Shown: positions 381 through 64,000, numbered from the stretch's first letter. The stretch: 64,000 nucleotides of DNA from Elusimicrobiota bacterium (GCA_016218545.1 JACRDQ010000030.1:256172-320171); one strand, 5' to 3'. Notes: a model not told the origin generated them from the sequence alone. Made by a program: numbers and translations.

Positions 381-1321
381 TCGGCATCGGCAAAGGCAGG
401 CCTCGCAAGCTCGTGTGTCCTGAATCGCTCGAAGGGGTGAGGCTGGACGAATTCCTGGCCAAGGAGCTGGGCGTGAGCCGCTCCCTGGCCAAGCGCCTCG
501 TGGAGGAGGGCCTCGCGACCGTGGACGGCGGCGTCCGGGCGGCCGACCTGCGCCTGCGGCCGGGCCAGGCCGTGGTCCTGTCCGCCAGGCCCGAGCCTCC
601 GCCCGCCTTCGGCCTGGAGGGGCGCGTGCTCCACGAGGACCGCGAGCTCCTCGTCTTGGACAAGCCCGCAGGCCTGCTCATGCATCCGCTGGGCACCACG
701 TGGCTCACCGATCCCATGGCGGCCCGCTGGGAGCCGGACCAGAACCTGGCAGGGCTCCTGCAGGTCCTGCGTCCCGGCATCGTGAAGGCCCGAGTCCCGC
801 GCTGCGGCATCGTCCATCGTCTCGACCGGCAGACCAGCGGCGTCCTGCTCGTGGCCAAGACGCCCGCCGCGTACGAACGTCTGACCGGGGCCTTCAAGGA
901 CCGGCAGATCTCCAAGGTCTACCGGGCCATCGTTCTGGGCGTTCCCACGGACCGGTCGACCTCGGTGGACGCGCCCGTGGGCCGCCCTCCTGGCAGGAGG
1001 ATGGTCAGGGTGACGCCTCTGGGCAAGACCTCCGTGACGCGCGTCCGGGTGGTGTCCTCCTGCGCGTCCGCGGCCCTCATCGAGGCCCGGCCCTTGACCG
1101 GAAGGACGCACCAGATCAGGGCCCACCTGACGCACCTCGGCCATCCCGTGCTCGGCGACCCCGAGGCCCAGTTCCCGGCCGGCTTTCCGAAGCCTCCGCG
1201 CCTGATGCTGCACGCCTGGCGCGTGGAGCTGGTCCATCCCTCCACCGGCCGCAAGGCGGCTTACGAGGCGCCGGTGCCCGCTGACTTCACCTCGTTCTGG
1301 GCGCGCCTGCGGAAGGGATAG
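379..1321 (+). CDS. rluD: RluA-family 23S rRNA pseudouridine synthase (RluD-like) with an N-terminal S4 RNA-binding domain
   Basis: The ATG at 379 gives MIGIGKGRPRK..VRLDEFLAKELGVSRSLAKRLVEEG, an S4-like domain. The core HRLDRQTSGVLLVAKT motif is typical of the RluA family. The longer ORF beginning at 281 is an N-terminal run-on. Confidence 0.8.
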
Positions 1322-2798
1322 CGAAGACCGAGGCGCCTTCCGCGTCGTCGCGGAAGACCGGGGCTCCCAGGCTGGACTCAGCCCAGGCCCCGATGAGGGC
1401 TCCCATGTCCCTTGCCCCGGCCGGCACGAAGCCTCCGGGCAGGAAGGAGTGCTCCACGTGGATATGGGTGACTCCAGCCTGGCGCGAGGTCTCGACCCAT
1501 TCCCGCGGTCCGGAAGAGCCGAGCGGCGGGGGGAGGCACTGTCGTCCGGTCAGGAGCATCACCGTGTTGAACTTGAGGCTTTCGACGACCGCGTCCGGAG
1601 GGCTGTTGAGGCGGACCCACTCCATGGTCCGGGCCTGATAGGAGGCCGGCCTGGTCAGGGACGCTGACACCAGCCTTGCGTCCTGCCGGAGCGCGGCCAG
1701 GGCCAGGAGTGCCAGCGCGGCCCGGCCCAACCAGGCCTGTGCCGGCCGGTCCGAGGGGGAGAGGGACCCGATCGCGGAGGCCGCGAAGAGCCAGACCAAG
1801 GGCGCGAGGGGGATGACGTAGCGGGAGTCCTCGGGGCTCCAGGTCAAGTGCAGGACCAGGACCAGGACGGTGTAGGCGGCCATGGCGAAGACCAGGGGCG
1901 TCTCCTCCCTGGAGCTCGTCATGAGGCGCCCTGCGCCCCACGCAGCGCAGCTCGCCAGGGCCAGACCCGCGGCCAAGACCAGCCAGCCCGGAGCCTGGGC
2001 GCCGGCCAGCCCGTCTCCGAAGAAGGAGGCGATGACGGCCAGGGCGTGGCTTCCCTGCGCCCCGGGTTCGCCGAGCAGGGCGACTTGGCTGCGCCAGTTC
2101 ACGGCGTATCCGGTCGAGACCCCGGCCGCGAGCTTGTTGCGCAGGAGCCAGAGGCCAAGGGGCGCCAGGCTCGAGAGGAGGAACGCGCCCTGGCGCCTGC
2201 GGCCGGGAGTGGCGAGGGCTCCTGCGGCCAGGGCCAGGCACAGGAGGCCGCCGTGCGGACGGATGAGACCCGCCCAAGCAGCCGCGGCCCACGCGCAGCC
2301 GGTCAGGGCCCAGGAGCCGGACCGGGTCCCCAGGTCCAGGGCCATGAGCGTCAAGGCCAGGTAGGGGATGTCCGGGAGCACGAGCCCGGAGTGGCGCACG
2401 AAGACGGGAGAGAGCGCGGTCAGGCCGGCCGCTGCCAGGGGCCACGGGGCCGGCAGGAGCCTCCAGCCCAGCCGCCAGGTGAAGAAGACGGCCAGGACCA
2501 TGGCGGCCAGCGGCACGCCGCGCAGGAGGCCCCACCGCGGCTCCGCCAGCCAGACCGGGCCCAGGAGCAGCGCCGCGTAGCCTGGCAGCGGGTCGCTGAC
2601 GGGCACGCCCTGGGCGTCGGGAAGGGCGAAGCCTCCGTGCCGCAGGGAGCGGGCGAGCAGGACCTGGACCGAGTCGTCCTCGATGAGCCCCACGGGGTTG
2701 CCTTTCGAGGCCGCGAGATGAAGGCAGAGCAGCGCGGCTGCGGCCGGCAGGATGAGGCGCGTTCTCACGGCCCGGGCTCCTCTGCGGAAAGCGCGCAC
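1287..2798 (-). CDS. Polytopic membrane protein of the GT-C glycosyltransferase type (family 39/83-like, ArnT/PMT_2-like)
   Basis: A 503-aa hydrophobic protein. Its N-terminus LIEDDSVQVLLARSLRHGGFAL..DPLPGYAALLLGPVWL is paralogous to the next gene upstream. Confidence 0.5.
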   Translation of the reverse strand: MRAFRRGARAVRTRLILPAAAALLCLHLAASKGNPVGLIEDDSVQVLLARSLRHGGFALPDAQGVPVSDPLPGYAALLLGPVWLAEPRWGLLRGVPLAAMVLAVFFTWRLGWRLLPAPWPLAAAGLTALSPVFVRHSGLVLPDIPYLALTLMALDLGTRSGSWALTGCAWAAAAWAGLIRPHGGLLCLALAAGALATPGRRRQGAFLLSSLAPLGLWLLRNKLAAGVSTGYAVNWRSQVALLGEPGAQGSHALAVIASFFGDGLAGAQAPGWLVLAAGLALASCAAWGAGRLMTSSREETPLVFAMAAYTVLVLVLHLTWSPEDSRYVIPLAPLVWLFAASAIGSLSPSDRPAQAWLGRAALALLALAALRQDARLVSASLTRPASYQARTMEWVRLNSPPDAVVESLKFNTVMLLTGRQCLPPPLGSSGPREWVETSRQAGVTHIHVEHSFLPGGFVPAGARDMGALIGAWAESSLGAPVFRDDAEGASVFAIPSAGAPRTR

Positions 2799-4393
2799 GC
2801 CAGGCTCGGCTCGAGCTCGAGCGCGGCCTTGAGCCTGCGGCGGAGGATCTTGGACGACGCGCCTGAGGCGGGGTCGCGGGCATGGAGGCAGGCCGTGTAG
2901 GCCTCGAAGTAGCGGCCGGGAGCCGGGTGGTGGATGCGGAACACGGCCGTGCCTTCCCTCGGGTTCGCATAGAGCTCGGAGGCATAGGGCGTCTGGCGAG
3001 CCCAGGACTCCAGGGTGGGGAGCTTGAGGTACGGCAGTGAAGGGTAGGCGAACTCTCCGGACAGAAGGCCCCTGGAGACATGCAGGTGGGTGACCCCGCG
3101 CGCCAGGGCGGAGGCGAGCCAGGCGTGCCGGTCGTAGACGGTCAAACCCGGCGGGACCGTGCGCCGTCCCGTGAAGAGCTCCACGGTGTGGAAGGCCAGG
3201 CTCTCCACGCGCGCTTCAGCCGGGAGGTTCTCGGCCAGCCAGGCCATGGTCTCCGGCTCGAAGGCCGGCCGCGGGCCCAGCCCCCTAGCCGCAAAGCCCA
3301 GGTCATGGCGCAGGAGGGCTGCGGAGAAGGCCAGCAGCAGGAGGCCGGCGGCCAGGGGTCTGCGCTCCAGCCAGATCCTCAGTGAGGCCATGATGAGGAT
3401 GACGACGAACGGGAGCAGGGCGATGAGATACCTGGCCTCCTTCAGGGGCCAGGTGGAGTGCATGGCGAGCACGAAGATGACGTAGGTCGCCATGGCCGCG
3501 GCCGGGACGCCTTCGCTGCCCCGCGCCAGGCGCACCGAGCCGTGAGCGACGAGGGCCAGGCATCCCAGCCCGGCCGCGGCGCTCAGGGCCTCCGGGCCCG
3601 TGACCCCGGCCAGGCCCTGGCCGAAGAGCGCGCCCAGGAGCCCAAGGACATGTCCGGCCTGCTGGAGCGGGTCGGCGAACAGGAAGGACTGGGACTTCCA
3701 GTTCGCGACGAAGCCGGTGACCGTGTCTCCTGCGAGGAGGTTGCGGAGCATCCAGCCCGCCAGGGGGAGGAAGGCTCCGGCCAGGAAGGCAAGTCCGCGG
3801 CCCCACCCCAGCCTCAGCCACACGGCCATGCCCAGGCTCAGGCCGAGGATGCTGCCCTGGGGCCTGGTCAGGCACCCTAGAGCGGCGGCCAAGGACAGGG
3901 CCGGCAGGGCCCAAGCAGGACTTCCGGGAGCCAGGGCCGCGGCTCCGAGGAAGAGGGCCAGGGACAGGGCGAGATAGGGGATGTCCGCGATCACGAGCCC
4001 GTCGAGGCCCACCAGCACGGGGTTGAGGGCCACGACTAGGGCCGCGGCCAGGGCCCAGCCCGGGGAGAGGAAGCGCAAGGCCAGGCGCCAGGTCAGCCAG
4101 ACCGAGAGCAGGGCGAAGGCGACGATCATGGGCTGGAGCAGGTGCCAGCGAGGCTCGACCAGCCAGGACGGGATGAGGAGCAGGGCCGCAAACCCCGGCA
4201 GGGGATCGGTCACGGCGGCGCCGTCCGCCAAGGCGAAGGCGCCGGTCCTCAGGGACTTGGAGAGGAGGATGAAGAAGGCGTCGTCGTTGAACGCTCCCAC
4301 GGCGAAGCGCCGGGCCGCGAGCAGGTGGAGGCCTGCCAGGGCCAGGCAGGCAGGCGCCAAGAGCCATGCCATGGGGAACGCTCGTCTCTTCAT
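2765..4393 (-). CDS. Tandem paralog of the 1287-2798 gene (GT-C glycosyltransferase-like membrane protein)
   Basis: The N-terminus AFNDDAFFILLSKSLRTGAFALADGAAVTDPLPGFAALLLIPSWLVEPRW is clearly homologous to 1287-2798. The two genes overlap by 34 nt. Confidence 0.5.
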   Translation of the reverse strand: MKRRAFPMAWLLAPACLALAGLHLLAARRFAVGAFNDDAFFILLSKSLRTGAFALADGAAVTDPLPGFAALLLIPSWLVEPRWHLLQPMIVAFALLSVWLTWRLALRFLSPGWALAAALVVALNPVLVGLDGLVIADIPYLALSLALFLGAAALAPGSPAWALPALSLAAALGCLTRPQGSILGLSLGMAVWLRLGWGRGLAFLAGAFLPLAGWMLRNLLAGDTVTGFVANWKSQSFLFADPLQQAGHVLGLLGALFGQGLAGVTGPEALSAAAGLGCLALVAHGSVRLARGSEGVPAAAMATYVIFVLAMHSTWPLKEARYLIALLPFVVILIMASLRIWLERRPLAAGLLLLAFSAALLRHDLGFAARGLGPRPAFEPETMAWLAENLPAEARVESLAFHTVELFTGRRTVPPGLTVYDRHAWLASALARGVTHLHVSRGLLSGEFAYPSLPYLKLPTLESWARQTPYASELYANPREGTAVFRIHHPAPGRYFEAYTACLHARDPASGASSKILRRRLKAALELEPSLACALSAEEPGP

Positions 4394-8064: not shown

Positions 8065-8170
8065 GCGCCGGCGGGCTTCTGCCGTCGACCGCGTCCCTGG
8101 CTTGACCTTTTTTTTACCGCCATCCGGCACACTATGATTGGGGACGGCGGACGTCGCGCCGTACGATGCC

Positions 8171-10285
8171 ATGGAAGAAGACAAGAACAAGAAACTGGCC
8201 TTACGCATCGCCTCGTTGTTGGACGACGTCTCGGAAACGCCGGAGCCCCGGGGCTCCGGCGCTCCGAGCCAGCCGGTCATCTCGCTGAGACCCGCCGTGG
8301 TGGAGGCCCTCCCCGCGGGCGCGGATCTCGGCTCTCCCGCGGTCCAGGCCCCTTCCGAGGTCCTGGCCTCGCCCGAGGTCGGGTCCGCTGTGATGGATAT
8401 CCTGCCCATCTGGGCTGACCCCGACTTTCCTGCGGAGCAGGCCGTGCCCGCGCCGGCCGAAGGGGCCGCGGCCAGCGCGGCCCCCAAGAGGTCCGTGCTG
8501 GTGGTCGACGATGACCGGGACTACCGGCGGATGGTCCGGGCCCTGCTTTCCGGCAACGGCTATGACGTCTACGAGGCCGAGGATGGGCGCCGGGCTCTGC
8601 AGTTGATCGCGCTGCACCGTCCGGACCTGGTGCTCGTGGACTTCAACATGCCGCGGATGAACGGCTACGAGATGATCCAGGAGGTGCGGAGCCGGTTCGA
8701 GACCCGCGCCATTCCGATCATCATGTTCACCGGCGCTTCCAACCGGAGCCACCTGCGGAGCCTGGGCATGGCTATCTCGGATTTCCTGGAGAAGCCGGTG
8801 TCCAATGTCAGGCTGCTGGAGAGCATCTCCAGCGTGCTCGGCGCGGAGCCGTCTCCCGAGCTCATGGGAGCGGAGTCCGCCCCGTCTCCCCGGATCGTTG
8901 CGCCGCCGAAGGCTCCGGAGACGACGCCGTCCCCGAAAGTCGTCGCAGCCGAAACCATGGCTGAGAAGCCTCCGGCGGCGCCGGCGGAGCCCGCTCCGAC
9001 GGGCCTGCCGCCGGAGCCGCTCGAAGAAGGGGACGAGGACGGGACCGAGCTCCTGCAGATCGAGGAGGAGAAGAAGGAGGAGGAGAGGCAGGAGGTCATC
9101 AGCCTCGAGCACCAGGCCAATGAGTCCCCGGTCATCAGCCAGGTGAACCGCATCCTCGTCAAGGCCGTGGGGATGCGCGCCTCCGACATCCACATCGAGC
9201 CTCAGGAGAAGCACATCACGGTCCGCGTGAGGGTCGACGGCACTCTCAAGCTCCTGTGCACCCTGCCCCTCTCCATCCATCCCCGCCTGAGCGCCCGCAT
9301 CAAGATCATGTCCAGCCTGGTCATCACGGAGAGACGCCTTCCCCAGGACGGGCAGTTCAAGACCCAGATCAGGGGCAGCCGGGTCGAGTTCCGGGTGAGC
9401 ACGCTCCCGTGCCTGCACGGCGAGAAGATCGTCATGCGCATCTTGGGCACCAGCAAGCTCAACGCCGATCTGGCCCAGATGAGCCTCCGTCCCCGCGACC
9501 TGGGCTGCGTGGAGAGGGCGCTCAGGACCCCTCACGGCCTCATCCTCGTGACCGGCCCCACCGGGAGCGGCAAGACCACCACCCTCTACACCATGATCAG
9601 CGTCCTCAACAAGCCCGAAGTCAACATCCTGACCGCCGAGGACCCCGTGGAGTACGAGGTGCCGGACATCTCGCAGGTCAAGGTCCTGCCGTCCATCGGC
9701 CTGACCTTCGAGTCCGCTCTGCGGGCCTTCCTGAGGCAGGACCCGGACATCATGCTCATCGGCGAGATCCGCGACCTGGAGACGGCCAACATCGCGGTCA
9801 AGGCCTCTATCACCGGACACCTGGTCTTCTCCACCCTGCATACCAACGGCGCCGTCGCCACCGTGACGAGGCTCGTCCACATGGGGGTGGCGCCCTATCT
9901 CGTCGCGGCCAGCGTCAAGCTCGTGGCGGCCCAGCGCCTGGTCCGGGACCTCTGCCCGTCCTGCAAGGTCCCCGGCGAGGTCTCCGACGACGAGAAGAAG
10001 TTCCTCGCGGAGGAGGAGGTCGCCAGGCTCCGATCCGTCTGGCGGAGCGCGGGGTGTCCCGCCTGCCATCAGACGGGGTACTCGGGGCGCTCGGCCCTCT
10101 TCGAGATCATGCCCCTGGACTCGGCGGCCATGCGCCAGCTCATCTGCGCCGGAGACAAGGCGGAGGAGCTCAACCGTCTGGCCCTTGCGGAGGGCATGAC
10201 CACCCTGCGGCAAGCCGCCTTGGAGGCGGTGGCGCGGGGCACGACCTCGTTGAGCGAGGCGCTCAAGGTCATGCTGGGGGGATGA
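8171..10285 (+). CDS. GspE/PilB-family secretion ATPase with an N-terminal disordered segment and a receiver (REC) domain
   Basis: The REC domain is VLVVDDDRDYRRMV..DLVLVDFNMPRMNGYE..EKP. The ATPase core has SDIHIEP, Walker A GPTGSGKTTT, DIMLIGEIRD, and the tetracysteine CPSC..CPAC. The start could instead be the TTG at 8138; the ATG at 8171 is used here. Confidence 0.8.
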   Translation: MEEDKNKKLALRIASLLDDVSETPEPRGSGAPSQPVISLRPAVVEALPAGADLGSPAVQAPSEVLASPEVGSAVMDILPIWADPDFPAEQAVPAPAEGAAASAAPKRSVLVVDDDRDYRRMVRALLSGNGYDVYEAEDGRRALQLIALHRPDLVLVDFNMPRMNGYEMIQEVRSRFETRAIPIIMFTGASNRSHLRSLGMAISDFLEKPVSNVRLLESISSVLGAEPSPELMGAESAPSPRIVAPPKAPETTPSPKVVAAETMAEKPPAAPAEPAPTGLPPEPLEEGDEDGTELLQIEEEKKEEERQEVISLEHQANESPVISQVNRILVKAVGMRASDIHIEPQEKHITVRVRVDGTLKLLCTLPLSIHPRLSARIKIMSSLVITERRLPQDGQFKTQIRGSRVEFRVSTLPCLHGEKIVMRILGTSKLNADLAQMSLRPRDLGCVERALRTPHGLILVTGPTGSGKTTTLYTMISVLNKPEVNILTAEDPVEYEVPDISQVKVLPSIGLTFESALRAFLRQDPDIMLIGEIRDLETANIAVKASITGHLVFSTLHTNGAVATVTRLVHMGVAPYLVAASVKLVAAQRLVRDLCPSCKVPGEVSDDEKKFLAEEEVARLRSVWRSAGCPACHQTGYSGRSALFEIMPLDSAAMRQLICAGDKAEELNRLALAEGMTTLRQAALEAVARGTTSLSEALKVMLGG

Positions 10286-10286: not shown

Positions 10287-11048
10287 ATGCCCGGCATGCC
10301 GTTGGTCGAGGCCTTTCGGGGCGACCTCACGACCCAGGAGCTCTGTCGTCGGGGACGCCTCAAGCTCAGGCGTTTCGATCCTCCCGGCTACGCGGAGGCC
10401 GTCGCCTTCTTCTCGGACGCGCGGGAAGGCGATCCGGAGTGCGCGGTCTCCGTGGCCGCCCTGGCCGAAGCCTACTCGCACTGGGGTTTCGCGAGGAAGC
10501 TCATAGGGCAGGAGAGCGAGAGCTATTTCCTCCTGGCTTTCGAGAACGCCTGCTTGGCGCTGGAGATGGCCCCTGAACTCGCCGAGACGCACCGGGCCAT
10601 GGCCGTCTGCCTGAGGCACCGGCCGCGCCGCGGCCCCGAGCAGGGACTCGCCGAGGCGTCGGCAGCGGTGAGGATCAACCCTTACGACGCCATGTCCTGC
10701 TACGAGCTCTGGCGGGCGATGGGCCATGACCCCGAGTCACCCATGATCCACAAGGCCCTGGCGCTCGATCCCGCGCTGCTGACCGTCAACAATGACCTGG
10801 CGGTGTCGCTCATGGAAGCGGAGCGCGCCCAAGAGGCCGGCTTCCATCTGCGCCAGTGCCTGCGGGTCAATTACGAGAACGCGGTGGCCCGATACAACAT
10901 GGTCCTGCTCCTCGCCTGCCGCGGCAAGACCGAGCAGGCGCAGACCCTGCTCGAGGCCTGGCTGAAGGGGCCCGATTTCGAGCCGCTGGTGCGCAGCGGG
11001 AACGCGTCGCTGGCTGACCCGCGCTCCACGGGGGGGATCCTCTTATGA
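10287..11048 (+). CDS. TPR-like repeat protein
   Basis: A helical repeat protein whose start is coupled to the GspE stop and whose end overlaps the kinase start. Confidence 0.55.
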   Translation: MPGMPLVEAFRGDLTTQELCRRGRLKLRRFDPPGYAEAVAFFSDAREGDPECAVSVAALAEAYSHWGFARKLIGQESESYFLLAFENACLALEMAPELAETHRAMAVCLRHRPRRGPEQGLAEASAAVRINPYDAMSCYELWRAMGHDPESPMIHKALALDPALLTVNNDLAVSLMEAERAQEAGFHLRQCLRVNYENAVARYNMVLLLACRGKTEQAQTLLEAWLKGPDFEPLVRSGNASLADPRSTGGILL

Positions 11049-13216
11049 ATCGCTTCCAATCTCCGAGCCAAGATGCCGGGGGCAAGACGCCCGATCAACT
11101 CGGCGCAGAGTTCGTCCTCGAGTTGGGAAGGGCCGTCAAGGTCGTGTCCCTGTACTACGCGAACCACCCGACCGCCCTTCAGACCCTCCGGCAAGTCCAC
11201 GCCATCCTGGAGCGGCTGTTGACCGGCCTTTCCGCGGGGCGCGTCACCTTCTCCCTGGCGGCCGGACGCTGGCTCAGGGATGGTTCCCCCCTGCCTGCCC
11301 CGGGTCCGGGCGCGGACTCCCTGCTCGGCGTGTTCGAGACCCACTCCATCGAGAGCCTCACCTTCCTGGGAGGCATCAGGCCCTTCGAGCTGGTCGCTCT
11401 GGCCGAGGTCGCGGCTTCCGTCCCGACGCGTCCGGGCCGCGCCGCGCTCCAGGAGTTCCTCCAGCAGAGAGGAGTGACCCACATCAAAGCGGACATCGAG
11501 CACTATTCCAAGGAGTCGGCTCCGCAGGGCTCGGACGGTTCCCTGGCGTCCGGCTTGCCGGCCGCCTCCTCGTCCGCTGCCAAGCCCCCTGTCGCGCCTT
11601 CCGTTCTCAGGCCTGCCGCGCCTGCGCCCGCTGGCAAGCCTTCAGCGCCTGCGTCCGCTGCCAAGCCCTCCGCGCCTGCGCCCGCTGGCAAGCCTTCGTC
11701 GCCTGCGCCCGCTGCCAAGCCCTCCGCGCCTGCGCCCGCTGGCAAGCCTTCGTCGCCTGCGCCCGCTGCCAAGCCCTCCGCGCCTGCGTCTGCTGCCAAG
11801 CTTGCCGCGCCGTCGCCTTCGGTCGCTCACAGCGTCCCGGCGCAGCCTCCCAAGCCGGCTCTCCCGCCCGTAGAGGTCCGTGCCTCCGCGGCCGGGATGT
11901 GGGGCCCGCCGTCGAGCCCTGCTCCCGACTCTCACGGGGACAGGCTTGGCGTCAGTTTCGGCAGCGTGCTTCGCAAGCTCGTGGAGACCGCGGTGCAGGA
12001 TCCCGACGAGAGGTCCCACATCTACGAGGACGTGGTGGCCATGGTCAAGGAGACCTTGGACCGCCACGTCGACCAGGCGACGCAGGCGCTCTCGGAGGAG
12101 AAGGCGCGCATCGTCAGGCAGGCCGCCAGGACCGAACGGGTGCTCACCACGGTGGCGGACGGAAAGTTCACCGTGGATAAAGAGGGAAGGGTCCTCATGA
12201 TGAACGCCAGCGCCGAGATGATCACGGGAAAGCGTCTGGCCGACCTCGCGGGCAAGCACATCACCGAGGGCGTCAAGGAGGGGGAGCACATGGTCGCGCT
12301 CGCCGAGGACCTGGCGTCCCCGGCCGTGGACGGAGCAGGGGTCACGGTCGTGGCCGATGAGGCGGTGGGCGGCGCCATGCGCCGCTCCCTGGCCCTGGTC
12401 CGAGACGACGCGGGCCGCGTGGTCGGCACGTACGCCTCCCTCCCCGACGCCGCCAAGTTCAAGGAAGCCCAGCGCCTGCAGGAGGAGTTCCTCTCCCGGG
12501 TGACGCACGACCTCCAGTCCCCGCTGGCCGCCATCTGCAGCGGACTCGAGCTCCTCGCGGACAAGGTCAGCTCCGTGGGCGGTCCCGAGACGGCCCAGTA
12601 CATCGACATCTGCATGCGCAACAGCCGTCACCTCTCGGGGATGATCCGCGAGATCCTCGATTTCTCGAAGCTCGACTCGGGCAAGATGACGGTGCACCCG
12701 GCCCCTGTCTCGGCCTCAAGCCTCCTCAAGGAGGCGGTGGAGAGCCTCCAGCCCTGGGCCAAGACCAGGAAGCTCCGCCTGGAAGCGCGTTCTGCCCACG
12801 CGGATTTCTCGGTGCTGGCGGACCAGCCGCGCGTCGTCCAGGTGCTGACCAACCTCATCTCGAACGCGGTCAAGTCCACAAAGGAAGGGGGCTCGATCAC
12901 CGTGGCGGCGGTCCCGGCAGCGGAGGACGGGCAGGGGATCTTCGCGGTGAAGGACACGGGGAGCGGGATCTCCCCTGAGGACCTCGGCCGCATCTTCGAG
13001 AAGTTCGTCCAGGTCGGGGACGGCCGCAGGGACGGGGTGGGACTCGGGCTTTCCATCGTCCAGGAGTTCGTCCGATTGCACGGCGGCGCGGTCTGGGCCG
13101 AGAGCGAGCCCGGCAAGGGTTCGGTGTTCTACTTCACGCTCCCCTTGTCGCAAGCCGGAGTCATCGGCCCCGCGGCGCAGGAGGTCCTGCCGCCTTCGGG
13201 GCGGCCCCGGCACTGA
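11045..13216 (+). CDS. Sensor histidine kinase with an N-terminal domain, a Pro/Ala-rich repeat linker, a PAS-like region, HisKA and HATPase_c
   Basis: H-box SRVTHDLQSPLAAI, N-box NLISNAVKST, and G-boxes DTGSGI and GVGLGLSIV. It shares an operon with the regulator, the REC-GspE fusion and the TPR protein. Confidence 0.8.
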   Translation: MNRFQSPSQDAGGKTPDQLGAEFVLELGRAVKVVSLYYANHPTALQTLRQVHAILERLLTGLSAGRVTFSLAAGRWLRDGSPLPAPGPGADSLLGVFETHSIESLTFLGGIRPFELVALAEVAASVPTRPGRAALQEFLQQRGVTHIKADIEHYSKESAPQGSDGSLASGLPAASSSAAKPPVAPSVLRPAAPAPAGKPSAPASAAKPSAPAPAGKPSSPAPAAKPSAPAPAGKPSSPAPAAKPSAPASAAKLAAPSPSVAHSVPAQPPKPALPPVEVRASAAGMWGPPSSPAPDSHGDRLGVSFGSVLRKLVETAVQDPDERSHIYEDVVAMVKETLDRHVDQATQALSEEKARIVRQAARTERVLTTVADGKFTVDKEGRVLMMNASAEMITGKRLADLAGKHITEGVKEGEHMVALAEDLASPAVDGAGVTVVADEAVGGAMRRSLALVRDDAGRVVGTYASLPDAAKFKEAQRLQEEFLSRVTHDLQSPLAAICSGLELLADKVSSVGGPETAQYIDICMRNSRHLSGMIREILDFSKLDSGKMTVHPAPVSASSLLKEAVESLQPWAKTRKLRLEARSAHADFSVLADQPRVVQVLTNLISNAVKSTKEGGSITVAAVPAAEDGQGIFAVKDTGSGISPEDLGRIFEKFVQVGDGRRDGVGLGLSIVQEFVRLHGGAVWAESEPGKGSVFYFTLPLSQAGVIGPAAQEVLPPSGRPRH
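11630..11819 (+). repeat. Seven tandem 27-nt units, including a perfect 54-bp duplication, encoding (A/G)KPS(A/S)PAPA inside the kinase gene
   Basis: Segments 11658-11711 and 11712-11765 are identical in sequence. Flanking units are degenerate copies. Confidence 0.7.
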
Positions 13217-15839: not shown

Positions 15840-16805
15840 GTGCCGACCCGAACGCAGACGACGACCAGCCTCGAGGCTTCCCTGGGACGGGTGCGCGCAG
15901 GCATGCAAGCCCGCGCCAAGCGCATCTCCGGCCGCGTGGGCTCCGCCCTGGCCGAGCACGTGTCCCGGCCGGGCAAGATGCTCCGGGCGAGGTTCGCGGT
16001 CCAGGTCGGGGCCGCCCTCGGGGTGGCGCCGGGAAAGACCGAGACGGTCGCCCGCGCCATGGAGCTGGCGCACAACGCCTCTCTCCTCCACGACGATTGC
16101 GTCGACGACGCCTCCCTGCGTCGGGGCCTGCCCACGCCCAACAGCGTCTACGGCTCGACCGTGGCGCTCCTCCTGGGGGACATCGCCTTCACCCAGTCGC
16201 TCGAGGAGGCGCTCGAACTCGGCCCCAAGGCCGTGGAGCGCCTCGTGAGCGCGGCGCGCGAGATGGCCATCGGCGAGCTCCAGGAGGAGTTCCTGCGCGG
16301 CTCCGTGGACGTGACCCTCGAGTCCTACATGGGGGTCGCGGCGCGCAAGACCGGGGCCCTCTTCGAGTGGGGCGGCTTGACGCTCTCGGACCTAAGCCCC
16401 CTCGAGCACGCGGCCGCCGACCCCGCCAGGCTGGGCTCGGCGCTCGGCATCCTCCTGCAGATGGTCGACGACATCCACGACTACACCCTGACGGACGCCG
16501 TGGCCGGCAAGGAGCGGGCCAAGGACGCCAAGATCGGGCGCGTGACCCTTCCCGGGGTCTTTGCGCTCGCGGACGCCTCCCGCCGGGGGCGCTTCCTCGA
16601 GTTGTGGGCCGCGCTGCGCCGGGACCCGCGCGCCGCCTCGGACCTGGCGCGCTTCCTCGACGAGAGCGGGTCGCTCGACGAGGCCCGCGCCGAGTGCCGC
16701 AAGGTGGTCGGGACCATCCTCGAGCTGACCCGGCGCCTGCCGGTCCGGGGAGAGGTCGACGAGGTGGCCGAGTTCGTCTCGGCCATGGCCGAGAGGGAAT
16801 TCTGA
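15840..16805 (+). CDS. Trans-polyprenyl diphosphate synthase (IspB/hepta- or octaprenyl-PP synthase family), or possibly a ComQ-like isoprenyl transferase
   Basis: GTG start. First Asp-rich motif LLHDDCVDDASLRRG, second motif MVDDIHDY, and GKERAKDAKIGRVTLP. It is the first gene of the radical-SAM operon. Confidence 0.85.
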   Translation: MPTRTQTTTSLEASLGRVRAGMQARAKRISGRVGSALAEHVSRPGKMLRARFAVQVGAALGVAPGKTETVARAMELAHNASLLHDDCVDDASLRRGLPTPNSVYGSTVALLLGDIAFTQSLEEALELGPKAVERLVSAAREMAIGELQEEFLRGSVDVTLESYMGVAARKTGALFEWGGLTLSDLSPLEHAAADPARLGSALGILLQMVDDIHDYTLTDAVAGKERAKDAKIGRVTLPGVFALADASRRGRFLELWAALRRDPRAASDLARFLDESGSLDEARAECRKVVGTILELTRRLPVRGEVDEVAEFVSAMAEREF

Positions 16806-17002
16806 TGGGCTACGCCGACCTCATCCGGCGGGCCTGGCGGACCGGGCGCTTCGCCGCCTCGGTCCGGTCGTCCGGGAAGAAGGGCGCCGCGGGCGTCCGT
16901 CCCGGGGAGAGCCGCGGCTCCATCCGCGGCGAGATGGAAGAGATCGTCCGCCGCGAGTCCGCCGACGCGCTCGGCTTCCTCGCGCCGCGCGGGGAGGGAA
17001 TC

Positions 17003-17254
17003 ATGAAGCTCGCACCGTTCGTGAAATTCCGTGAAGAGAAGTTCGGCGCGGTCCTGTTCGAGACCCGTTCCGAGAAGGTGTTCACCCTCAATCCGACGGC
17101 CGCGGACGTGGTGCGGGAGCTCCTCGCCGGCGCCTCGGAGGGCGAGATCGGAGAGCGCCTCAAGGGCCGCTACAGCGACCCCTCGGGCAGGCTCGCCGAC
17201 GAGGCCAAGGCCCTCGTGCGCCAGCTCCGCGACAAGGGGCTCATCGCGGACTAG
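17003..17254 (+). CDS. PqqD-family peptide chaperone (RiPP recognition element)
   Basis: MKLAPFVKFREEKFGAVLFETRSEKVFTLNPTAADVVRELLAGASEGEIGERL..LRDKGLI has the PqqD/MftB pattern. A strong SD (GGGGAGGG) sits 5 nt upstream of the ATG at 17003. The in-frame extension back to 16805 is possible but less likely. Confidence 0.7.
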   Translation: MKLAPFVKFREEKFGAVLFETRSEKVFTLNPTAADVVRELLAGASEGEIGERLKGRYSDPSGRLADEAKALVRQLRDKGLIAD

Positions 17255-17255
17255 C

Positions 17256-18254
17256 ATGGCTTCGAGGAAGGACGCGGTCAAGGCCGGAGGCCGGGCGTCC
17301 CGGGCGCCCTTGGAAGAGGCGTTGGCGCCCGGGATGCGGGCGCCGCTCTACATCGGCTGGCAGCTGACCAATGCCTGCGACCTGGCGTGCGTCCACTGCA
17401 TCGAGGAGTCCGGGCCGGGCCGCGCCTTCAAGGACGAGCTGACCCGGGAGCAGGCCTTCCGTATCCTCGAGCAGATCAAGACCGAGCAGGTGCCCTACGT
17501 CGCCTTCTCCGGGGGCGAGCCCTTCCTCCACCCGCACTTCCTGGAACTGGCCGCGTTCCTCGGAGACGCCGGGGTGTCGCTCAAGGTCGAGACCAACGGC
17601 CGCCACCTCACCGAGGCGGCCGCCTCGGCGCTGCGGGACCACGGAGTCCGGGCCGTGCAGGTCAGCCTCGACGGCGCCACCCCCGAGGCCTACCGCAAGG
17701 TGCGGCCCTCCGGCGACCACGCCCGGGTCCTGGCAGGCATCCGCCTCCTGCGCTCCAGGGGCGTGGAGGTGGAGGTCAACTTCGTCCCGACGCGGCACAA
17801 CGTCCATGAGATCGGAGCCGCCGTGGACCTGGCCTTCAGCGAGGGGGTCTCCGGCTTCTACACGGGCAGGCTCATCCTGGCCGGCCACGCCGCCAAGGCG
17901 CGGGACCTGGCCCCGACCCAGGAGCAGTACGACGCCTTCTTCGCGTGCCTCAAGGCCAAGGCCCAGGAGTACAAGGGCCGCATGACCGTGCGCTATCACG
18001 AGCTGGGCATCGCGCAGGAGGTCCGCTACCGCATGGCCAACCCCGCGGCCCTCTTCGTCATCCTGCCCGACGGCAGGGTGAAGCTCCTCAACGCCCTGCC
18101 GTTCGTGTGCGGCGACCTGCGCGAGCAGAGCCTCACCGAGGTCTGGAAGGCCTTCCTCGCGGGCTGGAAGTCGCCGCGGGTGGCCGACTTCGTCGGCCGC
18201 CTGGAGGCCGACCCCGGGCTCCTGCAAGGACTGCACCGATGGATCCCTTTGTGA
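17256..18254 (+). CDS. Radical-SAM enzyme, PqqE/MftC-like core without the full SPASM cysteine set (paralog 1)
   Basis: WQLTNACDLACVHC is a CxxxCxxC motif. FSGGEPFLHPHF is the SAM-binding motif. The C-terminus ILPDGRVKLLNALPFVCGDL looks like a vestigial half-SPASM with a single Cys. Confidence 0.85.
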   Translation: MASRKDAVKAGGRASRAPLEEALAPGMRAPLYIGWQLTNACDLACVHCIEESGPGRAFKDELTREQAFRILEQIKTEQVPYVAFSGGEPFLHPHFLELAAFLGDAGVSLKVETNGRHLTEAAASALRDHGVRAVQVSLDGATPEAYRKVRPSGDHARVLAGIRLLRSRGVEVEVNFVPTRHNVHEIGAAVDLAFSEGVSGFYTGRLILAGHAAKARDLAPTQEQYDAFFACLKAKAQEYKGRMTVRYHELGIAQEVRYRMANPAALFVILPDGRVKLLNALPFVCGDLREQSLTEVWKAFLAGWKSPRVADFVGRLEADPGLLQGLHRWIPL

Positions 18255-19198
18255 CCGAGTCCGGCGTGGAGACCGACGGCCGCGCCGCTCCGGCCCGCGG
18301 CGGCGGGAGCGGGCGGCCGAATCTGGCCCTGCGGATGGCGTCTGCGGTGCGCTACCGCTTCTTCCTGTACGCGGGACTCCTCCCGTACTTCCTCGGCGCG
18401 GCCTGGGCCCTGCGCATGGAGGGAGCCTTCGCGCCCGGCCGCTTCTGGCTGGGCCTGCTGGGCATCGGCCTGTCCGTCGTGGGTGTTGAGTCCTTCAACG
18501 AGTACTTCGACGCGCGCATGGGCACGGACCGCGTCTTCAACCCTTCCGACGACGAGTACATCCCCGCCTGGATGCTCTGGCTGGGGGTCGCGGCGTTCGC
18601 GGCCGCGGCGTGCGTGGGCATGGCCCTGGCCCATGCCGGAGGCTGGCCCATCCTCCTCTACATGGGGCTGGGCGGCATGGCCGCGGCCTTCTACGTGGGC
18701 CCGCCTTTCCGCTGGGCCTACCTGGGCCTCGGCGAGACCTCGATCGCCTTGTCCTACGGGCCCTGGATGACCCTGGGCAGCATCCACCTGCACACGGGCG
18801 CTTTCTCCTGGCGCGGCCTGGCGGCCGCGCTCGTGCCCGGCTTGCTGGTGGCGTCGCTCGCCGTGGTCAACGAGATCCCGGATTTCCACCAGGACCGGCT
18901 CGTGGGCAAGCGCAACCTCGTGGTGCGGCTGGGCCGCAGGAACGGGGTCGCCCTGTACCTCGCCCTGGCCGGGGCGGGCTTGGCCGCGTGCTTCGCAGGC
19001 GCGGCCGCGGGCTGGTTCCCGGTCGCGTGCGGCCTGGCCGGGGCCCTGGGCCTGCCGTGCTGGTTCTCGAGCGCTCGGACCGCGGTCAAGGCGTGGGACA
19101 CGCCGCGGCTTTTCGTGCCCGCGGTGCGGGACATCGTGCAGTGCTATCTCGTGACCGTGAGCGCCTTCATCATGGCGCTCGCCGTGAGGCTGCCGTGA
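18239..19198 (+). CDS. UbiA-family membrane prenyltransferase (MenA/UbiA-like)
   Basis: A polytopic protein. NEYFDARMGTD is an NxxxDxxxD-like Asp-rich motif, and a second motif is VNEIPDFHQD. It overlaps the upstream radical-SAM gene by 16 nt and the downstream one by 4 nt. Confidence 0.75.
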   Translation: MDPFVTESGVETDGRAAPARGGGSGRPNLALRMASAVRYRFFLYAGLLPYFLGAAWALRMEGAFAPGRFWLGLLGIGLSVVGVESFNEYFDARMGTDRVFNPSDDEYIPAWMLWLGVAAFAAAACVGMALAHAGGWPILLYMGLGGMAAAFYVGPPFRWAYLGLGETSIALSYGPWMTLGSIHLHTGAFSWRGLAAALVPGLLVASLAVVNEIPDFHQDRLVGKRNLVVRLGRRNGVALYLALAGAGLAACFAGAAAGWFPVACGLAGALGLPCWFSSARTAVKAWDTPRLFVPAVRDIVQCYLVTVSAFIMALAVRLP

Positions 19199-20109
19199 GG
19201 ATCGCGTCCTTCGACGTTCCCCTGGCCGCTGCCTGGCGCCTGACCGACCGGTGCGACCTCTCCTGCCGGCACTGCCTCAACGCTTCCGGGCCCAAGGCTG
19301 ACACGGCCGCCGAGCTCTCCCGGCCCGAGGCTCTCAAGCTGGCCCGGAGCATCGGCTCAGCCCAGGTCCCCTACGTCATCCTCTGCGGGGGCGAGCCCAT
19401 GCTGAGCCCCGACTTCTGGCAGGCGGCCGAGACCCTGGGCGAGGCAGGCGCGTGGCTCAAGGTGGAGACGCACGGCCAGAACCTCGGGCGCACCCAGGCG
19501 GAGCGCCTGGCCAAGCTCCCCATCCGCTCGGTCCAGGTCTCTCTCGACGGGGTCACCCAGCAGGCTTACGAGTCCCTGCGGCCAGGGGCCTCCCTGGCCA
19601 AGACCTTGGAAGCTTGCCGCGAGGTGCGGCGTCAAGGCATGCCCCTCGAGATCTCCTTCGTCCCGGTCCAGGGCAACATCCACGAGGCTCCGGCGGTCAT
19701 CGACCTGGCCCTGGACCTGGGCGCCTTCCGGTTCAACACCGGGACCCTCATCAAGCGCGGCCGCGCCGCAGCCGCTTGGAAGAAGCTCCTTCCTGATGCC
19801 GAGTCCATGGCAGGCTTGCTCGCGGTCCTCACCCGTCGCGAAGCCACCCTGGCCGGGAGGCTCGAGCTCTGCTTCAGGCCTTTCAATTTCGAAGACCAGG
19901 TCCGCGCCGAACGCGCGGAGCCCTCAGGCACGCTCACGATCCTGCCTGACGGCAAGGTCCCTGTCTCGGCCTCCTCGGACGTCGTCTGCGCCGACCTTCG
20001 GACGCAGACGGTCAGGGAGGCCTGGCGCGCTTACTTGGCGGCGCACGGCAAGGGGCCACGATCGGAAAGATGGGTCGGCTCGTGTCTTGAGCCGGCTACC
20101 CGGTCCTAG
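19195..20109 (+). CDS. Radical-SAM enzyme, paralog 2
   Basis: The GTG start overlaps the UbiA stop (GTGA), with GAGG 5 nt upstream. Motifs WRLTDRCDLSCRHC, CGGEPMLSPDF, KVETHG, VQVSLDG, LPDGKVP..VVCADL. Confidence 0.75.
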   Translation: MRIASFDVPLAAAWRLTDRCDLSCRHCLNASGPKADTAAELSRPEALKLARSIGSAQVPYVILCGGEPMLSPDFWQAAETLGEAGAWLKVETHGQNLGRTQAERLAKLPIRSVQVSLDGVTQQAYESLRPGASLAKTLEACREVRRQGMPLEISFVPVQGNIHEAPAVIDLALDLGAFRFNTGTLIKRGRAAAAWKKLLPDAESMAGLLAVLTRREATLAGRLELCFRPFNFEDQVRAERAEPSGTLTILPDGKVPVSASSDVVCADLRTQTVREAWRAYLAAHGKGPRSERWVGSCLEPATRS

Positions 20110-20129
20110 GCCGGGATTTAGGAGACAGC

Positions 20130-20255
20130 ATGAGAGACAAGAAGAACGTGACGGATGGAAAGGCGAAGGCCGACAAGAAGCCCGTGTGGCAGACCCCTTC
20201 TCTCGAAGAGGTCACCGAGCGTGTCATGGCCCAGCCGTACATCAGGTTCACGTGA
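20130..20255 (+). CDS. Candidate 41-aa RiPP precursor peptide
   Basis: MRDKKNVTDGKAKADKKPVWQTPSLEEVTERVMAQPYIRFT. GGAGA lies 5 nt upstream of the ATG. It is the only gap in an otherwise overlapping operon, and its TGA stop overlaps the GTG of the next radical-SAM gene. Confidence 0.5.
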   Translation: MRDKKNVTDGKAKADKKPVWQTPSLEEVTERVMAQPYIRFT

Positions 20256-21226
20256 CGCACCCGAGGGGGGCGGCGGTAGGAGACTACCGCGCCCCCCTCT
20301 TTGTCGCGTGGCAACTCACCAACCGCTGCCGCGGCCGCTGCCTGGCCTGCTGCGAGGAATCCGGTCCGGGCAAGGGAATCCGCCAAGGCGGGTCCTGGCA
20401 GGCTGAGCTCACCAAGCAGGAAGCCCTCCGCGTCAGCCGCGACATCGCGGCCTCCGGGGTCTCCTACGTGGCGTTCGGCGGGGGGGAACCCATGGAGGTG
20501 CCGCACTTCTGGGACATCCTCTCCATCCTCTCCAAGGGCGGGGTCCGCATCAAGATCGAGACCAACGGCGGGACCATCGGCCGCTCCCAGGCCAAGCGCC
20601 TCTCCGCCTTGGGCGTGTCCTCCATCCAGATCAGCCTCGACGGCCCCACGGCCCGCGAGCACGAGGCCTTGAGGCCCGGCTCGAGCTTCAACAAAGCGGT
20701 CCGGGCGGTCCGCTGTCTGGCTGAGGAAGGGCTCGGGCCTGAGGTCGTGTTCATCCCCATGAAGAGGAACGTGGGCCAGGCCGTCAAGGTCTACCGATTG
20801 GCGGCCAGTCTCGGAGCCAGGGTGCTTGCGACCGGCCCTCTCATGCGCCTGGGACGCGCCGGAGCAGCATGGAAGGAACTCGCCCCGTCGGCCGGGCGAT
20901 GGCGGACCGCGGTCCGGGCGCTCAAGGCCGAGGCCGCCCGTGCCAAGGCAGGGCCCAAGCTCTCCATCTATCCCTGGGGCATCCAGAGGGAGATCGAGAC
21001 CAGGCTCGAGCATCCCCAGGCCATGGTCCTCGTGGTGCCTGACGGCAAGGTCAAGCTCCTCAATGCCCTCCCTTTTGCTCCAGGCGACCTGCGGCGACAC
21101 TCCCTGGCCCAGGCCTGGACGCGCTGCCTCGGAGCTTGGCGCGACCCCAAGGTGCGGGCTTTCTGCCGCAAGGCCGTGAAGGACCCCGGGCTCCTGGCGC
21201 ACGCCAACGAATGCTGGCCCGCCTAA
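20252..21226 (+). CDS. Radical-SAM enzyme, paralog 3, closest to paralog 1
   Basis: WQLTNRCRGRCLACC is a CxxxCxxC motif. Also FGGGEPMEVPHF, KIETNG, IQISLDG, VVPDGKVKLLNALPFAPGDLRRHSLAQAW. The start is inferred as the GTG at 20252; no alternative in-frame start follows the downstream GGAGAC. Confidence 0.7.
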   Translation: MTHPRGAAVGDYRAPLFVAWQLTNRCRGRCLACCEESGPGKGIRQGGSWQAELTKQEALRVSRDIAASGVSYVAFGGGEPMEVPHFWDILSILSKGGVRIKIETNGGTIGRSQAKRLSALGVSSIQISLDGPTAREHEALRPGSSFNKAVRAVRCLAEEGLGPEVVFIPMKRNVGQAVKVYRLAASLGARVLATGPLMRLGRAGAAWKELAPSAGRWRTAVRALKAEAARAKAGPKLSIYPWGIQREIETRLEHPQAMVLVVPDGKVKLLNALPFAPGDLRRHSLAQAWTRCLGAWRDPKVRAFCRKAVKDPGLLAHANECWPA

Positions 21227-22286
21227 TCCAAGCAGGCTGAGAAGAGCGCGGGGAGCTCGCCGAGCCTGCCCGCCTCGGCGAGCTTGCCCAGGTCGAAGAG
21301 GATGAGGCCTCCGGAGCCTCCCTGCCAGGCGGCGTCGGCGGCGGCCCTGAGCTCGCCGGGTCCGAGGGGATGCTCCGCGTCTCCCACGAAGATGATGGGC
21401 CAGACCGGCTTGCCCGAATCGGCCTTGACGGCCATGGAGGCGTCCGTGATCCAGGACGCGGGCCTGCGCAGGAGCGCGTGGTACGCCATGGGCGAGACCA
21501 CGTCCGCTGCCCTGCCCATGAGGCGGTGGTCCTGGCCGAGGATCTCGAGGACGGCCCCGCGCTTCTCCGAGCGCTCCCAGGGCACGGCGAAGTAGCCCAC
21601 CAGGGCCGCGGGGTCGGCCGCGTGGACCGCGTCTGCGACCTCGCTGACGAGGCCCGCGATGCTCGCGGTCTTGAACGCGGTCCAGCGCTCCTTGTGGTCC
21701 GACAGGATCCAGCGCGCCTTCTCCCTGGCCGTGAGCTCCTCCGGGACCGCGACCCCGGTTTCCTTGCGGAACTCCCTCAGGCACACCGGGCAGAAGCAGG
21801 TCTGCTCGAGATGGGGCTCGGGGACCTCCCAGTGGCCGGGATAGCGGATGAAGTCGAGCCACACGCCGTCGACTTCCTGCTTGCGCACCAGGGACACGGC
21901 GCGCTTCTTGATGTCCAGCCTGAGCCAAGTCTGGTTGGGGCAGACGGCGGCGTACCACTTGACCTTGGCGAGGGGTTCGCCGACCTCGCTGACCGGCCTG
22001 CTCTCGGGCCGCGTCTTCCAATGACGCTCTCCCGCGAAGGCTGTGAGCTCCGCGAACACGCGGATGCCACGGCCGCGCAGGGCCTTGCGGAGGAGCGGGT
22101 CCTTGTAGCCGCCGAAGACCGCGTTCACGCCCCAGGAGGAGAGGGCCTCGGCGATCCGCTCCGGGGTCTTGCCCTTGAAGGCCGCGGACTTGGGGTCGAA
22201 GCCGTAGACCCCGCACACCGGTCCGGCGTCAGCGGCAAGAGCGGGCTGGACCGCGAGGATGAGGCCGGCGAGGATGAGGAGGAGCA

Positions 22287-22287
<1 letters not shown>
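21223..22287 (-). CDS. Secreted glycoside hydrolase-like protein (GHL10/YngK-like)
   Basis: The GTG start overlaps the purH stop. Signal peptide LLLILAGLILAVQPALAADA. GVWLDFIRYPGHWE resembles the D(Y/F)IRYP motif of the GHL10 family. This call rests on my memory of the family. Confidence 0.45.
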
Positions 22288-26296
<4,009 letters not shown>

Positions 26297-62568: not shown

Positions 62569-62589
62569 CGGCTTGCGACATTGAACCGG

Positions 62590-62671: not shown

Positions 62672-64000
<1,329 letters not shown>

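Follow-up and report, generated by a model that had tools for sequence, protein, structure and literature searches.

A conserved operon in Elusimicrobiota and Proteobacteria encodes three cysteine-poor radical SAM enzymes, a PqqD-family chaperone, a UbiA-superfamily prenyltransferase and a precursor-like peptide

Gene content of the locus

The locus described here lies in a 64,000-nucleotide stretch of DNA from an Elusimicrobiota bacterium (GCA_016218545.1, JACRDQ010000030.1:256172-320171), the whole of which we refer to as the window. It holds a compact gene cassette encoding three radical S-adenosylmethionine (SAM) enzymes (r1, r2 and r3), a PqqD-family chaperone, a UbiA-superfamily prenyltransferase and a short precursor-like peptide, with a polyprenyl diphosphate synthase gene upstream. 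The gene content suggests that the cassette is an unnamed system of the kind in which a peptide is matured by radical SAM enzymes in dependence on a recognition element (RRE) for peptides that are synthesized ribosomally and modified post-translationally (RiPPs).

Positions 15840-21226 of the window, which has a G+C content of ~70%, form a single densely packed operon on the plus strand, in which adjacent genes overlap by 4–16 nt or lie 1–20 nt apart. The genes are as follows.

15840-16805, + strand: IspB-like polyprenyl diphosphate synthase, 321 aa
17003-17254, + strand: PqqD-family peptide chaperone (RRE), 83 aa
17256-18254, + strand: first radical SAM enzyme (r1), 332 aa, with a CX3CX2C core and a Cys-poor SPASM/twitch-like C-terminal domain
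18239-19198, + strand: MenA/UBIAD1-like UbiA-superfamily prenyltransferase, 319 aa
19195-20109, + strand: second radical SAM enzyme (r2), 304 aa, with a CX3CX2CC core
20130-20255, + strand: precursor-like peptide MRDKKNVTDGKAKADKKPVWQTPSLEEVTERVMAQPYIRFT, 41 aa, between r2 and r3
20252-21226, + strand: third radical SAM enzyme (r3), 324 aa, with a CX3CX2CC core

An earlier note on this DNA had described 17256-21226 as three radical SAM genes. All three are present, but the UbiA gene and the 41-codon open reading frame (ORF) that lie among them had been overlooked. The UbiA gene shares 16 nt with r1 and 4 nt with r2, while the peptide gene has GGAG in front and a stop codon that overlaps the start of r3. 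The starts assigned to r1 and r2 agree with those of database proteins that are 100% identical over the full length (P0001 and P0121, respectively). For r1, a 100% identical protein comes from an Elusimicrobia metagenome-assembled genome. The PqqD start at 17003 is preceded by GGGAGGGAATC, with a GGGAGG site, and the resulting length matches the 83–86 aa of its orthologs.

Conservation of the cassette across genomes

In a scan of one genome per species, at least 202 species were found to encode a relative of the peptide, and 84 loci were read. Complete genomes among the carriers include CP096137.1 and CBDIQC010000001.1. The carriers are mostly free-living Elusimicrobiota, together with Casimicrobiaceae, Usitatibacter, Burkholderiales, Caldimonas, Acidocella, Rhodopila and Steroidobacteraceae, and the loci read span Elusimicrobiota, Burkholderiales/Casimicrobiaceae/Usitatibacter, Acetobacteraceae and Steroidobacteraceae. 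The order (IspB)–PqqD–r1–UbiA–r2–peptide–r3 is kept in 84 of 84 loci wherever the contig allows; the PqqD gene is present in every locus that extends that far, and all three radical SAM genes are present in every complete cassette. Similarly, homologs of r1 in Acetobacteraceae, Burkholderiales and one further contig of 1 Mb lie in the arrangement PqqD–radical SAM–UbiA–radical SAM–ORF of 48–50 aa–radical SAM. The polyprenyl synthase gene stands directly upstream of PqqD in all 43 Elusimicrobiota loci with enough upstream DNA and in none of 22 loci of Proteobacteria; in the form that the cassette takes in Elusimicrobiota, it is the accessory prenyl-donor gene.

Among the 84 loci, no further gene, whether transporter, protease, immunity gene or other, was consistently linked to the cassette, and a heme gene was conserved near none of them. 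Genes for SRPBCC, methyltransferase, fmt and DUF6455 proteins beside the Acetobacteraceae copies, and for CCG/Fer4 and DctM proteins beside the Burkholderiales copies, were considered and rejected as parts of the system, since they occur in only 2–5 loci. The Elusimicrobiota cassette adjoins purH-ligA-nusB in a neighbourhood that is syntenic across many metagenome-assembled genomes (MAGs), an association that points to vertical inheritance within Elusimicrobiota. The three neighbours accompany the cassette in 31 (purH), 26 (ligA) and 16 (nusB) of the loci read. Downstream of the cassette in the window, the minus-strand stretch 21223-26259 holds an ORF without a Pfam match, followed by purH, ligA and nusB; the stretch of this ORF that was translated and compared with Pfam is 21226-22290 (355 aa), with an apparent N-terminal signal-like segment.

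Two divergent loci widen this picture. Positions 1-4389 of one contig (L095; GCA_042563375.1, GC 48%) carry a full cassette whose proteins are only 36–49% identical to those of the window, and its third radical SAM enzyme still has the hairpin Cys (PFTCGDLR) that the window's r3 has lost. The other (L096, positions 178-3625) shows the order polyprenyl synthase–radical SAM (35% to r1)–PqqD–57-aa ORF–UbiA (29% to that of the window), with only one radical SAM gene visible ahead of a change in contig character. The 57-aa ORF ends in KDNYIVSTLF and has a Tyr-Ile pair near the C-terminus, as does the window peptide. This locus appears to be a second, differently ordered and independent coupling of the same five functions.

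The precursor-like peptide and the PqqD-family chaperone

The 41-aa ORF is uncalled in the window and was recognised by comparison with genes of 48–50 aa called in other loci (L001-L004). The tail VMAQPYIRFT, followed directly by the stop codon, is present in 84 of 84 peptide copies. Because the search pattern contained VMAQPY, this part of the tail is ascertainment-biased; IRFT did not belong to that pattern, and the search also employed a second one that was independent of the first. The ten residues are identical in the divergent L095 peptide, which is likewise uncalled. Nine of the ten tail codons vary at the third position, none at the second and one at the first, the last being a synonymous CGN/AGG exchange. 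The peptide is thus a real gene under strong purifying selection. Upstream of the tail, a further stretch, W-(E/Q)-T-P-x-(L/M)-E-(E/D)-V, is conserved. The peptide matched no NCBIfam model even at E ≤ 10. We take the W...Y spacing of Klebsiella PqqA and the EEVS...M...Y of MftA to resemble it, a likeness without profile support that serves as a lead only.

The chaperone gene product matches Pfam PF05402 with 43.8 bits (gathering score 23.4) and stays below the cutoffs of the NCBIfam models for MftB, PqqD and lasso-PqqD, with 23–25 bits against the MftB model (cutoff 33). A PqqD-like RRE together with a short precursor gene beside the maturases, found in 84 of 84 loci, would place the cassette among RRE-dependent, RiPP-type systems. 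The earlier note had supposed one chaperone and one substrate for the three enzymes; this becomes more credible with a PqqD gene and a precursor-like peptide gene in the same packed operon.

The three radical SAM enzymes

All three enzymes belong to the radical SAM superfamily, as evidenced by the CX3CX2C motif, the GGE motif and a (beta/alpha)6 core in AlphaFold2 models. Matches to Pfam PF04055 reach 92.3 (r1), 71.0 (r2) and 76.5 bits (r3) against a gathering score of 29.5, and at E ≤ 0.01 the only Pfam matches are Radical_SAM and, in r1 and r2, Fer4_12. The model of r2 has a predicted local distance difference test score of 92 and the same architecture as r1.

The proposal that the three genes are paralogs was borne out by BLASTP, with identities of 36–41%, far beyond chance: 39% for r1 and r3 (E 1e-75), 41% for r1 and r2 (E 5e-74) and 36% for r2 and r3 (E 8e-62). 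The motifs quoted as common to the three copies were all found, except that r2 deviates from KVETNG. The N-terminal cluster motif reads WQLTNACDLACVHC in r1, WRLTDRCDLSCRHC in r2 and WQLTNRCRGRCLAC in r3, and is followed by FSGGEP, LCGGEP and FGGGEP, respectively. KVETNG in r1 corresponds to KVETHG in r2, with His for Asn, and to KIETNG in r3. VSLDG is present in r1 and r2 and ISLDG in r3, and the C-terminal block is ILPDGRV..VCGDL in r1, ILPDGKV..VCADL in r2 and VVPDGKV..APGDL in r3. That the C-termini of r1 and r3 are nearly identical was an overstatement, as 21 of 37 residues (57%) are identical, compared with 39% over the whole proteins.

A neighbour-joining tree was built from 12 orthologs of each copy and rooted with core segments of PqqE and SkfB. 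In 100 bootstraps, the orthogroups were monophyletic in 87 (r1), 65 (r2) and 100 (r3), and no branching order among the copies was well supported (r1 with r3 in 37%, r2 with r3 in 27% and r1 with r2 in 1% of bootstraps). Each copy is kept as its own orthogroup across phyla at 44–54% identity, and mean distances are ~1.25 between paralogs compared with ~0.5–0.6 within a copy across phyla. Because the distances between copies far exceed those within a copy, the triplication is older than the spread of the cassette and the enzymes are not interchangeable. The three copies are therefore old and non-redundant.

Auxiliary-cluster cysteines and the C-terminal domain

We took a SPASM domain to require the pattern CX9-15GX4C...CX2CX5CX3C...C, with two auxiliary clusters, and a Pfam score at or above the gathering score. 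As the earlier note had stated, the seven-Cys pattern is absent from r1, r2 and r3, and the Pfam SPASM threshold is not reached. Scanned with PF13186 (gathering score 21.5), the C-terminal 86–94 residues gave 17.7 bits for r1 (E 0.004), 13 bits for r2 and no match for r3, the sub-threshold matches being centred on the LPDG hairpin. The total number of Cys is five in r1, three of them in CX3CX2C, and eight each in r2 and r3.

Ligand conservation was counted over 71–78 orthologs of each copy. Two Cys lie beyond the core motif in r1, of which C285 (PFVCGDL) is conserved in 100% and is the sole conserved Cys of the C-terminal domain. A core-helix Cys present in 90% of r1 orthologs is Ala in r1 of the window. 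Orthologs of r2 conserve C141 (95%), C226 (87%), C265 (96%; VVCADLR) and a fourth, motif-adjacent Cys (92%); the model of r2 places C141 in core helix 134–146 and C226 and C265 in strands of the C-terminal domain. In r3, Pro or Ala replaces the hairpin Cys (PFAPGDL in the window), and the other Cys of the C-terminal domain are present in just 57–69% of orthologs. A fourth Cys straight after the cluster motif (CX3CX2CC) occurs in r2, r3 and 92–96% of their orthologs and is missing from r1.

The description of the enzymes as keeping a single-Cys vestige of the SPASM/twitch region thus holds for r1, but not for r3, which has Pro at the site, nor for r2, which has further conserved Cys. No complete auxiliary Cys motif had been missed by eye in any of the three, though the extra conserved Cys of r2 had not been noted. 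A twitch domain requires at least three Cys ligating one auxiliary cluster, and neither r1 nor r3 conserves such a set. To judge from the residues present, a classical auxiliary cluster is excluded for these two enzymes, and r2 may hold an unusual auxiliary site formed by its extra Cys.

The fold has been kept: a C-terminal domain of the SPASM/twitch type, a beta-hairpin and a helix packed on the core, is present. Profile alignments to PqqE and SkfB end with helix alpha-6, and that to PqqE stops at residue 243, right ahead of Cys248, the AuxI ligand of PqqE (PMC10906245). PqqD docks onto the SPASM domain of PqqE (PMC10906245), and the cluster-free fold may have been retained because a PqqD docking surface lies there. 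That the domain serves as a docking surface for chaperone or peptide is a conjecture, since relatives in heme operons keep the domain too.

Cys-poor relatives outside the cassette

When 1.8 billion representatives were searched exhaustively, 38,395 matches were obtained at E ≤ 1e-3, 68 of them at E ≤ 1e-30. The full-length matches include many proteins of 300–370 aa with 0–3 Cys after the core, interleaved with seven-Cys SPASM proteins, and none of ten Cys-poor relatives tested reached an NCBIfam cutoff. Some of these relatives lie in heme operons, in the orders URO-D–radical SAM–ferrochelatase and URO-D–ferrochelatase–radical SAM–HemY-like oxidase, and others (P0270, P0269 and P0258) adjoin PqqD genes and further radical SAM genes. 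The block G(K/R)VK..LPFxCGDLR..W....W is common to the heme-operon and the PqqD-linked relatives. Judged by these sequences, the Cys-poor C-terminal domain is not peculiar to the cassette, being found also in heme-operon and PqqD-cluster relatives. Two heme-operon proteins, P0246 and P0265, resemble AhbD-type coproheme decarboxylases without the SPASM cysteines; the latter scores 118 bits against the AhbD model (cutoff 500).

The prenyl enzymes

The UbiA protein belongs to the UbiA superfamily (PF01040, 56.6 bits against 34.2). Its best NCBIfam match is dihydroxynaphthoate polyprenyltransferase, and it remains below the thresholds for MenA (63.3 against 102.15 bits for TIGR00751; 102.3 against 264 for NF004751). 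The only sequence match in the PDB is human UBIAD1 (8djk). Over 74 orthologs, the Asp-rich motifs NEYFDaxMGTD and NxIPDfhQDRLVGK are at least 95% conserved at most positions, and they read NEYFDARMGTD and NEIPDFHQDRLVGKRN in the window. The enzyme shares both Asp-rich motifs with MenA and UBIAD1, and in Elusimicrobiota it has an IspB-like synthase as a partner, as in quinone pathways. It differs from MenA in being set between radical SAM genes and outside any men or mqn operon, and from MenA and UBIAD1 in being present in Betaproteobacteria too, which use ubiquinone, not menaquinone.

The polyprenyl synthase matches Pfam PF00348 with 139 bits, and its best NCBIfam matches are solanesyl, heptaprenyl and octaprenyl diphosphate synthases, all under the cutoff. 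Both Asp-rich (DDxxD) motifs, HNASLLHDDCVD and VDDIHDY, show conservation across 46 orthologs. In prenyl synthases, residues at positions −5 and −4 ahead of the first DDxxD motif help to set chain length; here these are Ala and Ser, which would fit a medium- or long-chain product.

Comparison with known radical SAM systems

Kinship of the three enzymes to MftC, PqqE and SkfB was confirmed by NCBIfam and PDB matches. MftC (TIGR03962, cutoff 265) is the top NCBIfam match of all three, with 128 (r1), 99 (r2) and 108 bits (r3), and the peptide maturases SkfB and PqqE are the best PDB matches. Scores stay below the cutoffs for PqqE (TIGR02109; 83, 87 and 54 bits for r1, r2 and r3 against 381) and AhbD (TIGR04545; 120, 86 and 76 bits against 500) as well. 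No cassette protein reached the cutoff of any NCBIfam model, and literature searches aimed at a system of PqqD, UbiA, radical SAM enzyme and precursor peptide found no description. On these features, the radical SAM enzymes and the UbiA protein lie outside the MftC, PqqE, AhbD, SPASM and MenA families, the defining features of which they lack.

The cassette resembles the mycofactocin system in its small precursor with a conserved, Tyr-bearing C-terminus, its PqqD-family chaperone and the cofactor-like way in which the core is conserved. The C-terminus of MftA reads IDGMCGVY, and Met stands at Tyr−4 in both MftA and the cassette peptide, a weak resemblance only. The cassette Tyr is not C-terminal, however, as the peptide ends in -QPYIRFT rather than -GVY. 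The MftC match halts at profile position ~233 of 339, ahead of the SPASM part, and the cassette has three radical SAM enzymes instead of one, no auxiliary-cluster Cys and no MftD, MftE or MftF homologs, while it adds the UbiA prenyltransferase and the polyprenyl synthase. Compared with the pyrroloquinoline quinone (PQQ) system, the peptide has Met and no Glu at Tyr−4 (E-X3-Y in PqqA), and the cassette is without PqqB and PqqC and has the prenyltransferase in addition. SkfB (PDB 6efn), a twitch-domain sactisynthase, binds an auxiliary cluster in that domain, where r1 has one conserved Cys and r3 none; it also has an N-terminal RRE of its own, whereas this part falls to a stand-alone PqqD protein in the cassette.

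AhbD, NirJ and AhbC are alike in giving comparable scores and in that paralogous radical SAM enzymes act in series in one pathway. The cassette differs in having PqqD and the peptide and in lacking tetrapyrrole genes nearby. The SPASM domain of AhbD carries auxiliary [4Fe-4S] clusters, and the alternative heme pathway employs several paralogous radical SAM enzymes in series (PMC13564367).

Proposed pathway and alternative explanations

On balance, we consider it probable that the cassette encodes a pathway resembling those of PQQ and mycofactocin, in which a peptide is matured by three radical SAM enzymes and then polyprenylated. The PqqD chaperone would bind the leader W-(E/Q)-T-P-x-(L/M)-E-(E/D)-V and present the core VMAQPYIRFT. 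Enzymes r1, r2 and r3 would each run one 5′-deoxyadenosyl-radical step on the core, most probably around its sole Tyr. They would act without auxiliary Fe-S clusters, the cluster-free SPASM/twitch-like domain providing a capping and docking surface, and the UbiA enzyme would then attach a long polyprenyl chain to the core as modified or to a piece excised from it. The result would be a small molecule that derives from the peptide and is anchored in the membrane; the analogy to PQQ and mycofactocin makes a redox cofactor or a quinone-like lipid plausible. Gene content and order, their conservation, the selection on the peptide, the lack of cluster ligands and the fold are results of the analysis, whereas we infer that the peptide is the substrate, in what order the steps run, and what the chemistry and product are; three sequential radical steps on one substrate, which the earlier note took to be implied, belong to this part of the proposal. 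The peptide pathway is favoured by the constant gene order, the purifying selection on the peptide, the PqqD match, the three old and non-redundant enzymes with their MftC, SkfB and PqqE matches, and the conserved motifs of the UbiA and IspB proteins. Other Cys-poor relatives that adjoin PqqD genes, and the L096 locus with its coupling of the same five functions, also count for it.

Several observations weigh against this pathway. MftC-type decarboxylation needs a C-terminal Tyr and PqqE-type crosslinking needs Glu at Tyr−4; the cassette peptide offers neither, and therefore neither chemistry is directly transferable. The known relatives PqqE, MftC and AhbD use auxiliary clusters, which are electron conduits, for C–C crosslinking or oxidative decarboxylation, and r1 and r3, as predicted from their ligands, cannot bind such clusters. 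The cassette also lacks a conserved peptidase by which a head group could be released. The scores of r1 against AhbD (120 bits) and NirJ (113 bits) are nearly at the MftC level. The best-scoring relative outside the cassette with a readable context (P0246, 324 aa, 41% to r1; L087 1139-4087) lies between URO-D and ferrochelatase genes, so that a closer relationship to enzymes that do not modify peptides, which the earlier note had named as a refutation, was found in part. Another of the best-scoring relatives with a readable context (P0265, 310 aa; L086 1276-5690) has no Cys beyond the core and also sits in a heme operon; neither operon contains PqqD. The sequence kinship is partly with heme-operon enzymes, and the case for a peptide substrate is one of gene context.

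These observations give some room to a non-peptide substrate, a tetrapyrrole or the aromatic head group of a quinone, with the peptide and PqqD acting as carrier, scaffold or regulator. The scores of AhbD, NirJ and NirJ2 lie near that of MftC for r1 and r2, and P0246 and P0265, in their URO-D/ferrochelatase(/HemY-like) operons, have the whole C-terminal block in common with the cassette enzymes. UbiA-superfamily enzymes also prenylate tetrapyrroles, weak matches to BchG/ChlG were obtained, and a series of paralogous radical SAM enzymes is, as noted above, what the alternative heme pathway uses (PMC13564367). We nevertheless regard such a substrate as improbable, as PqqD and the peptide occur in every cassette with an invariant tail, no heme gene is conserved near the 84 loci and other Cys-poor relatives adjoin PqqD. 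In addition, the prenyltransferase scores 102 bits as a MenA/UBIAD1-type enzyme against 31 for chlorophyll synthases, and no heme O synthase match was obtained at E ≤ 0.01. Still further from likely, and in our view barely credible, is that a single radical SAM enzyme works and the other two are degenerate, non-catalytic scaffold paralogs. The loss of auxiliary ligands can be read as decay, and r3 has lost the hairpin Cys too; yet all three keep CX3CX2C and GGEP and show confident full-length folds where modelled, and each forms its own orthogroup across phyla, at the identities given above, with all three in every complete cassette.

The end product could, alternatively, be a lipidated RiPP, in which the modified peptide, wholly or mostly, is polyprenylated on a side chain and serves not as a cofactor but as a signal, surfactant or antimicrobial. 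A precursor, an RRE chaperone, several radical SAM maturases and a tailoring transferase follow standard RiPP logic, no conserved peptidase is there to excise a small head group, and related Cys-poor radical SAM enzymes occur in clusters with MFS or ABC transporters. The core, however, is invariant from Elusimicrobiota to Proteobacteria and in the cassette with proteins of 36–49% identity, which is unusual for antimicrobial RiPPs, and prenyltransferases of the MenA/UBIAD1 type take small aromatic head groups as substrates. The cassette has no exporter or immunity gene as a conserved neighbour, and in Elusimicrobiota it stands in housekeeping surroundings that are syntenic across many MAGs. Taken together, the constant core, the housekeeping setting and the missing genes for export and immunity speak for a cofactor more than for an antibiotic, and we judge a lipidated RiPP to be unlikely. 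Returning to the pathway that we favour, a more specific version of it would add to PQQ and mycofactocin a third redox cofactor of ribosomal origin: the three radical SAM enzymes, free of auxiliary clusters, would cut a Tyr-based head group out of VMAQPYIRFT, and its polyprenylation by the MenA-like enzyme would yield a quinone-like electron carrier of the membrane. We put this forward tentatively, as a possibility that is rather doubtful in its particulars.

Other genes of the window

Outside the cassette, only housekeeping, signalling and pilus/secretion-ATPase genes were found in the window, with no quinone pathway among them. In a histidine kinase of 723 aa (11045-13216), a long repeat linker rich in Pro, Ala and Lys (AAKPSAPAPAGKPSSPAPAAKPSAPAPAGKPSS...) separates the N-terminal region from the kinase core. 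Two secretion ATPases of the T2SSE/PilB type are present; that at 8138-10282 carries a fused N-terminal response-regulator receiver domain, and that at 62585-64000 has an MshEN domain and continues past the end of the window. On the minus strand, 38540-40777 encodes a protein of 746 aa whose C-terminal part is an FGE-sulfatase (formylglycine-generating enzyme-like) domain and whose ~520 N-terminal residues have no Pfam match.

Implications

If the proposed pathway is correct, a lipid-anchored compound, produced by radical chemistry that needs no oxygen, would join the few cofactors that derive from peptides. Enzymes like MftC and PqqE would then be shown to manage peptide modification with no auxiliary Fe-S clusters, at present considered central to this subfamily, and the cassette would be the first case found of a UbiA-type long-chain prenyltransferase within a RiPP-like operon. 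It would also provide a function for a gene set of at least 202 species-level genomes and more than 1000 metagenomic proteins annotated just as 'radical SAM protein'. With 6–7 genes in ~5.4 kb, the cassette is compact enough to be directly testable. Under the same tentative version of the pathway, and with the same doubt attached, a quinone-like carrier would serve respiratory, free-living Elusimicrobiota and several proteobacterial lineages.

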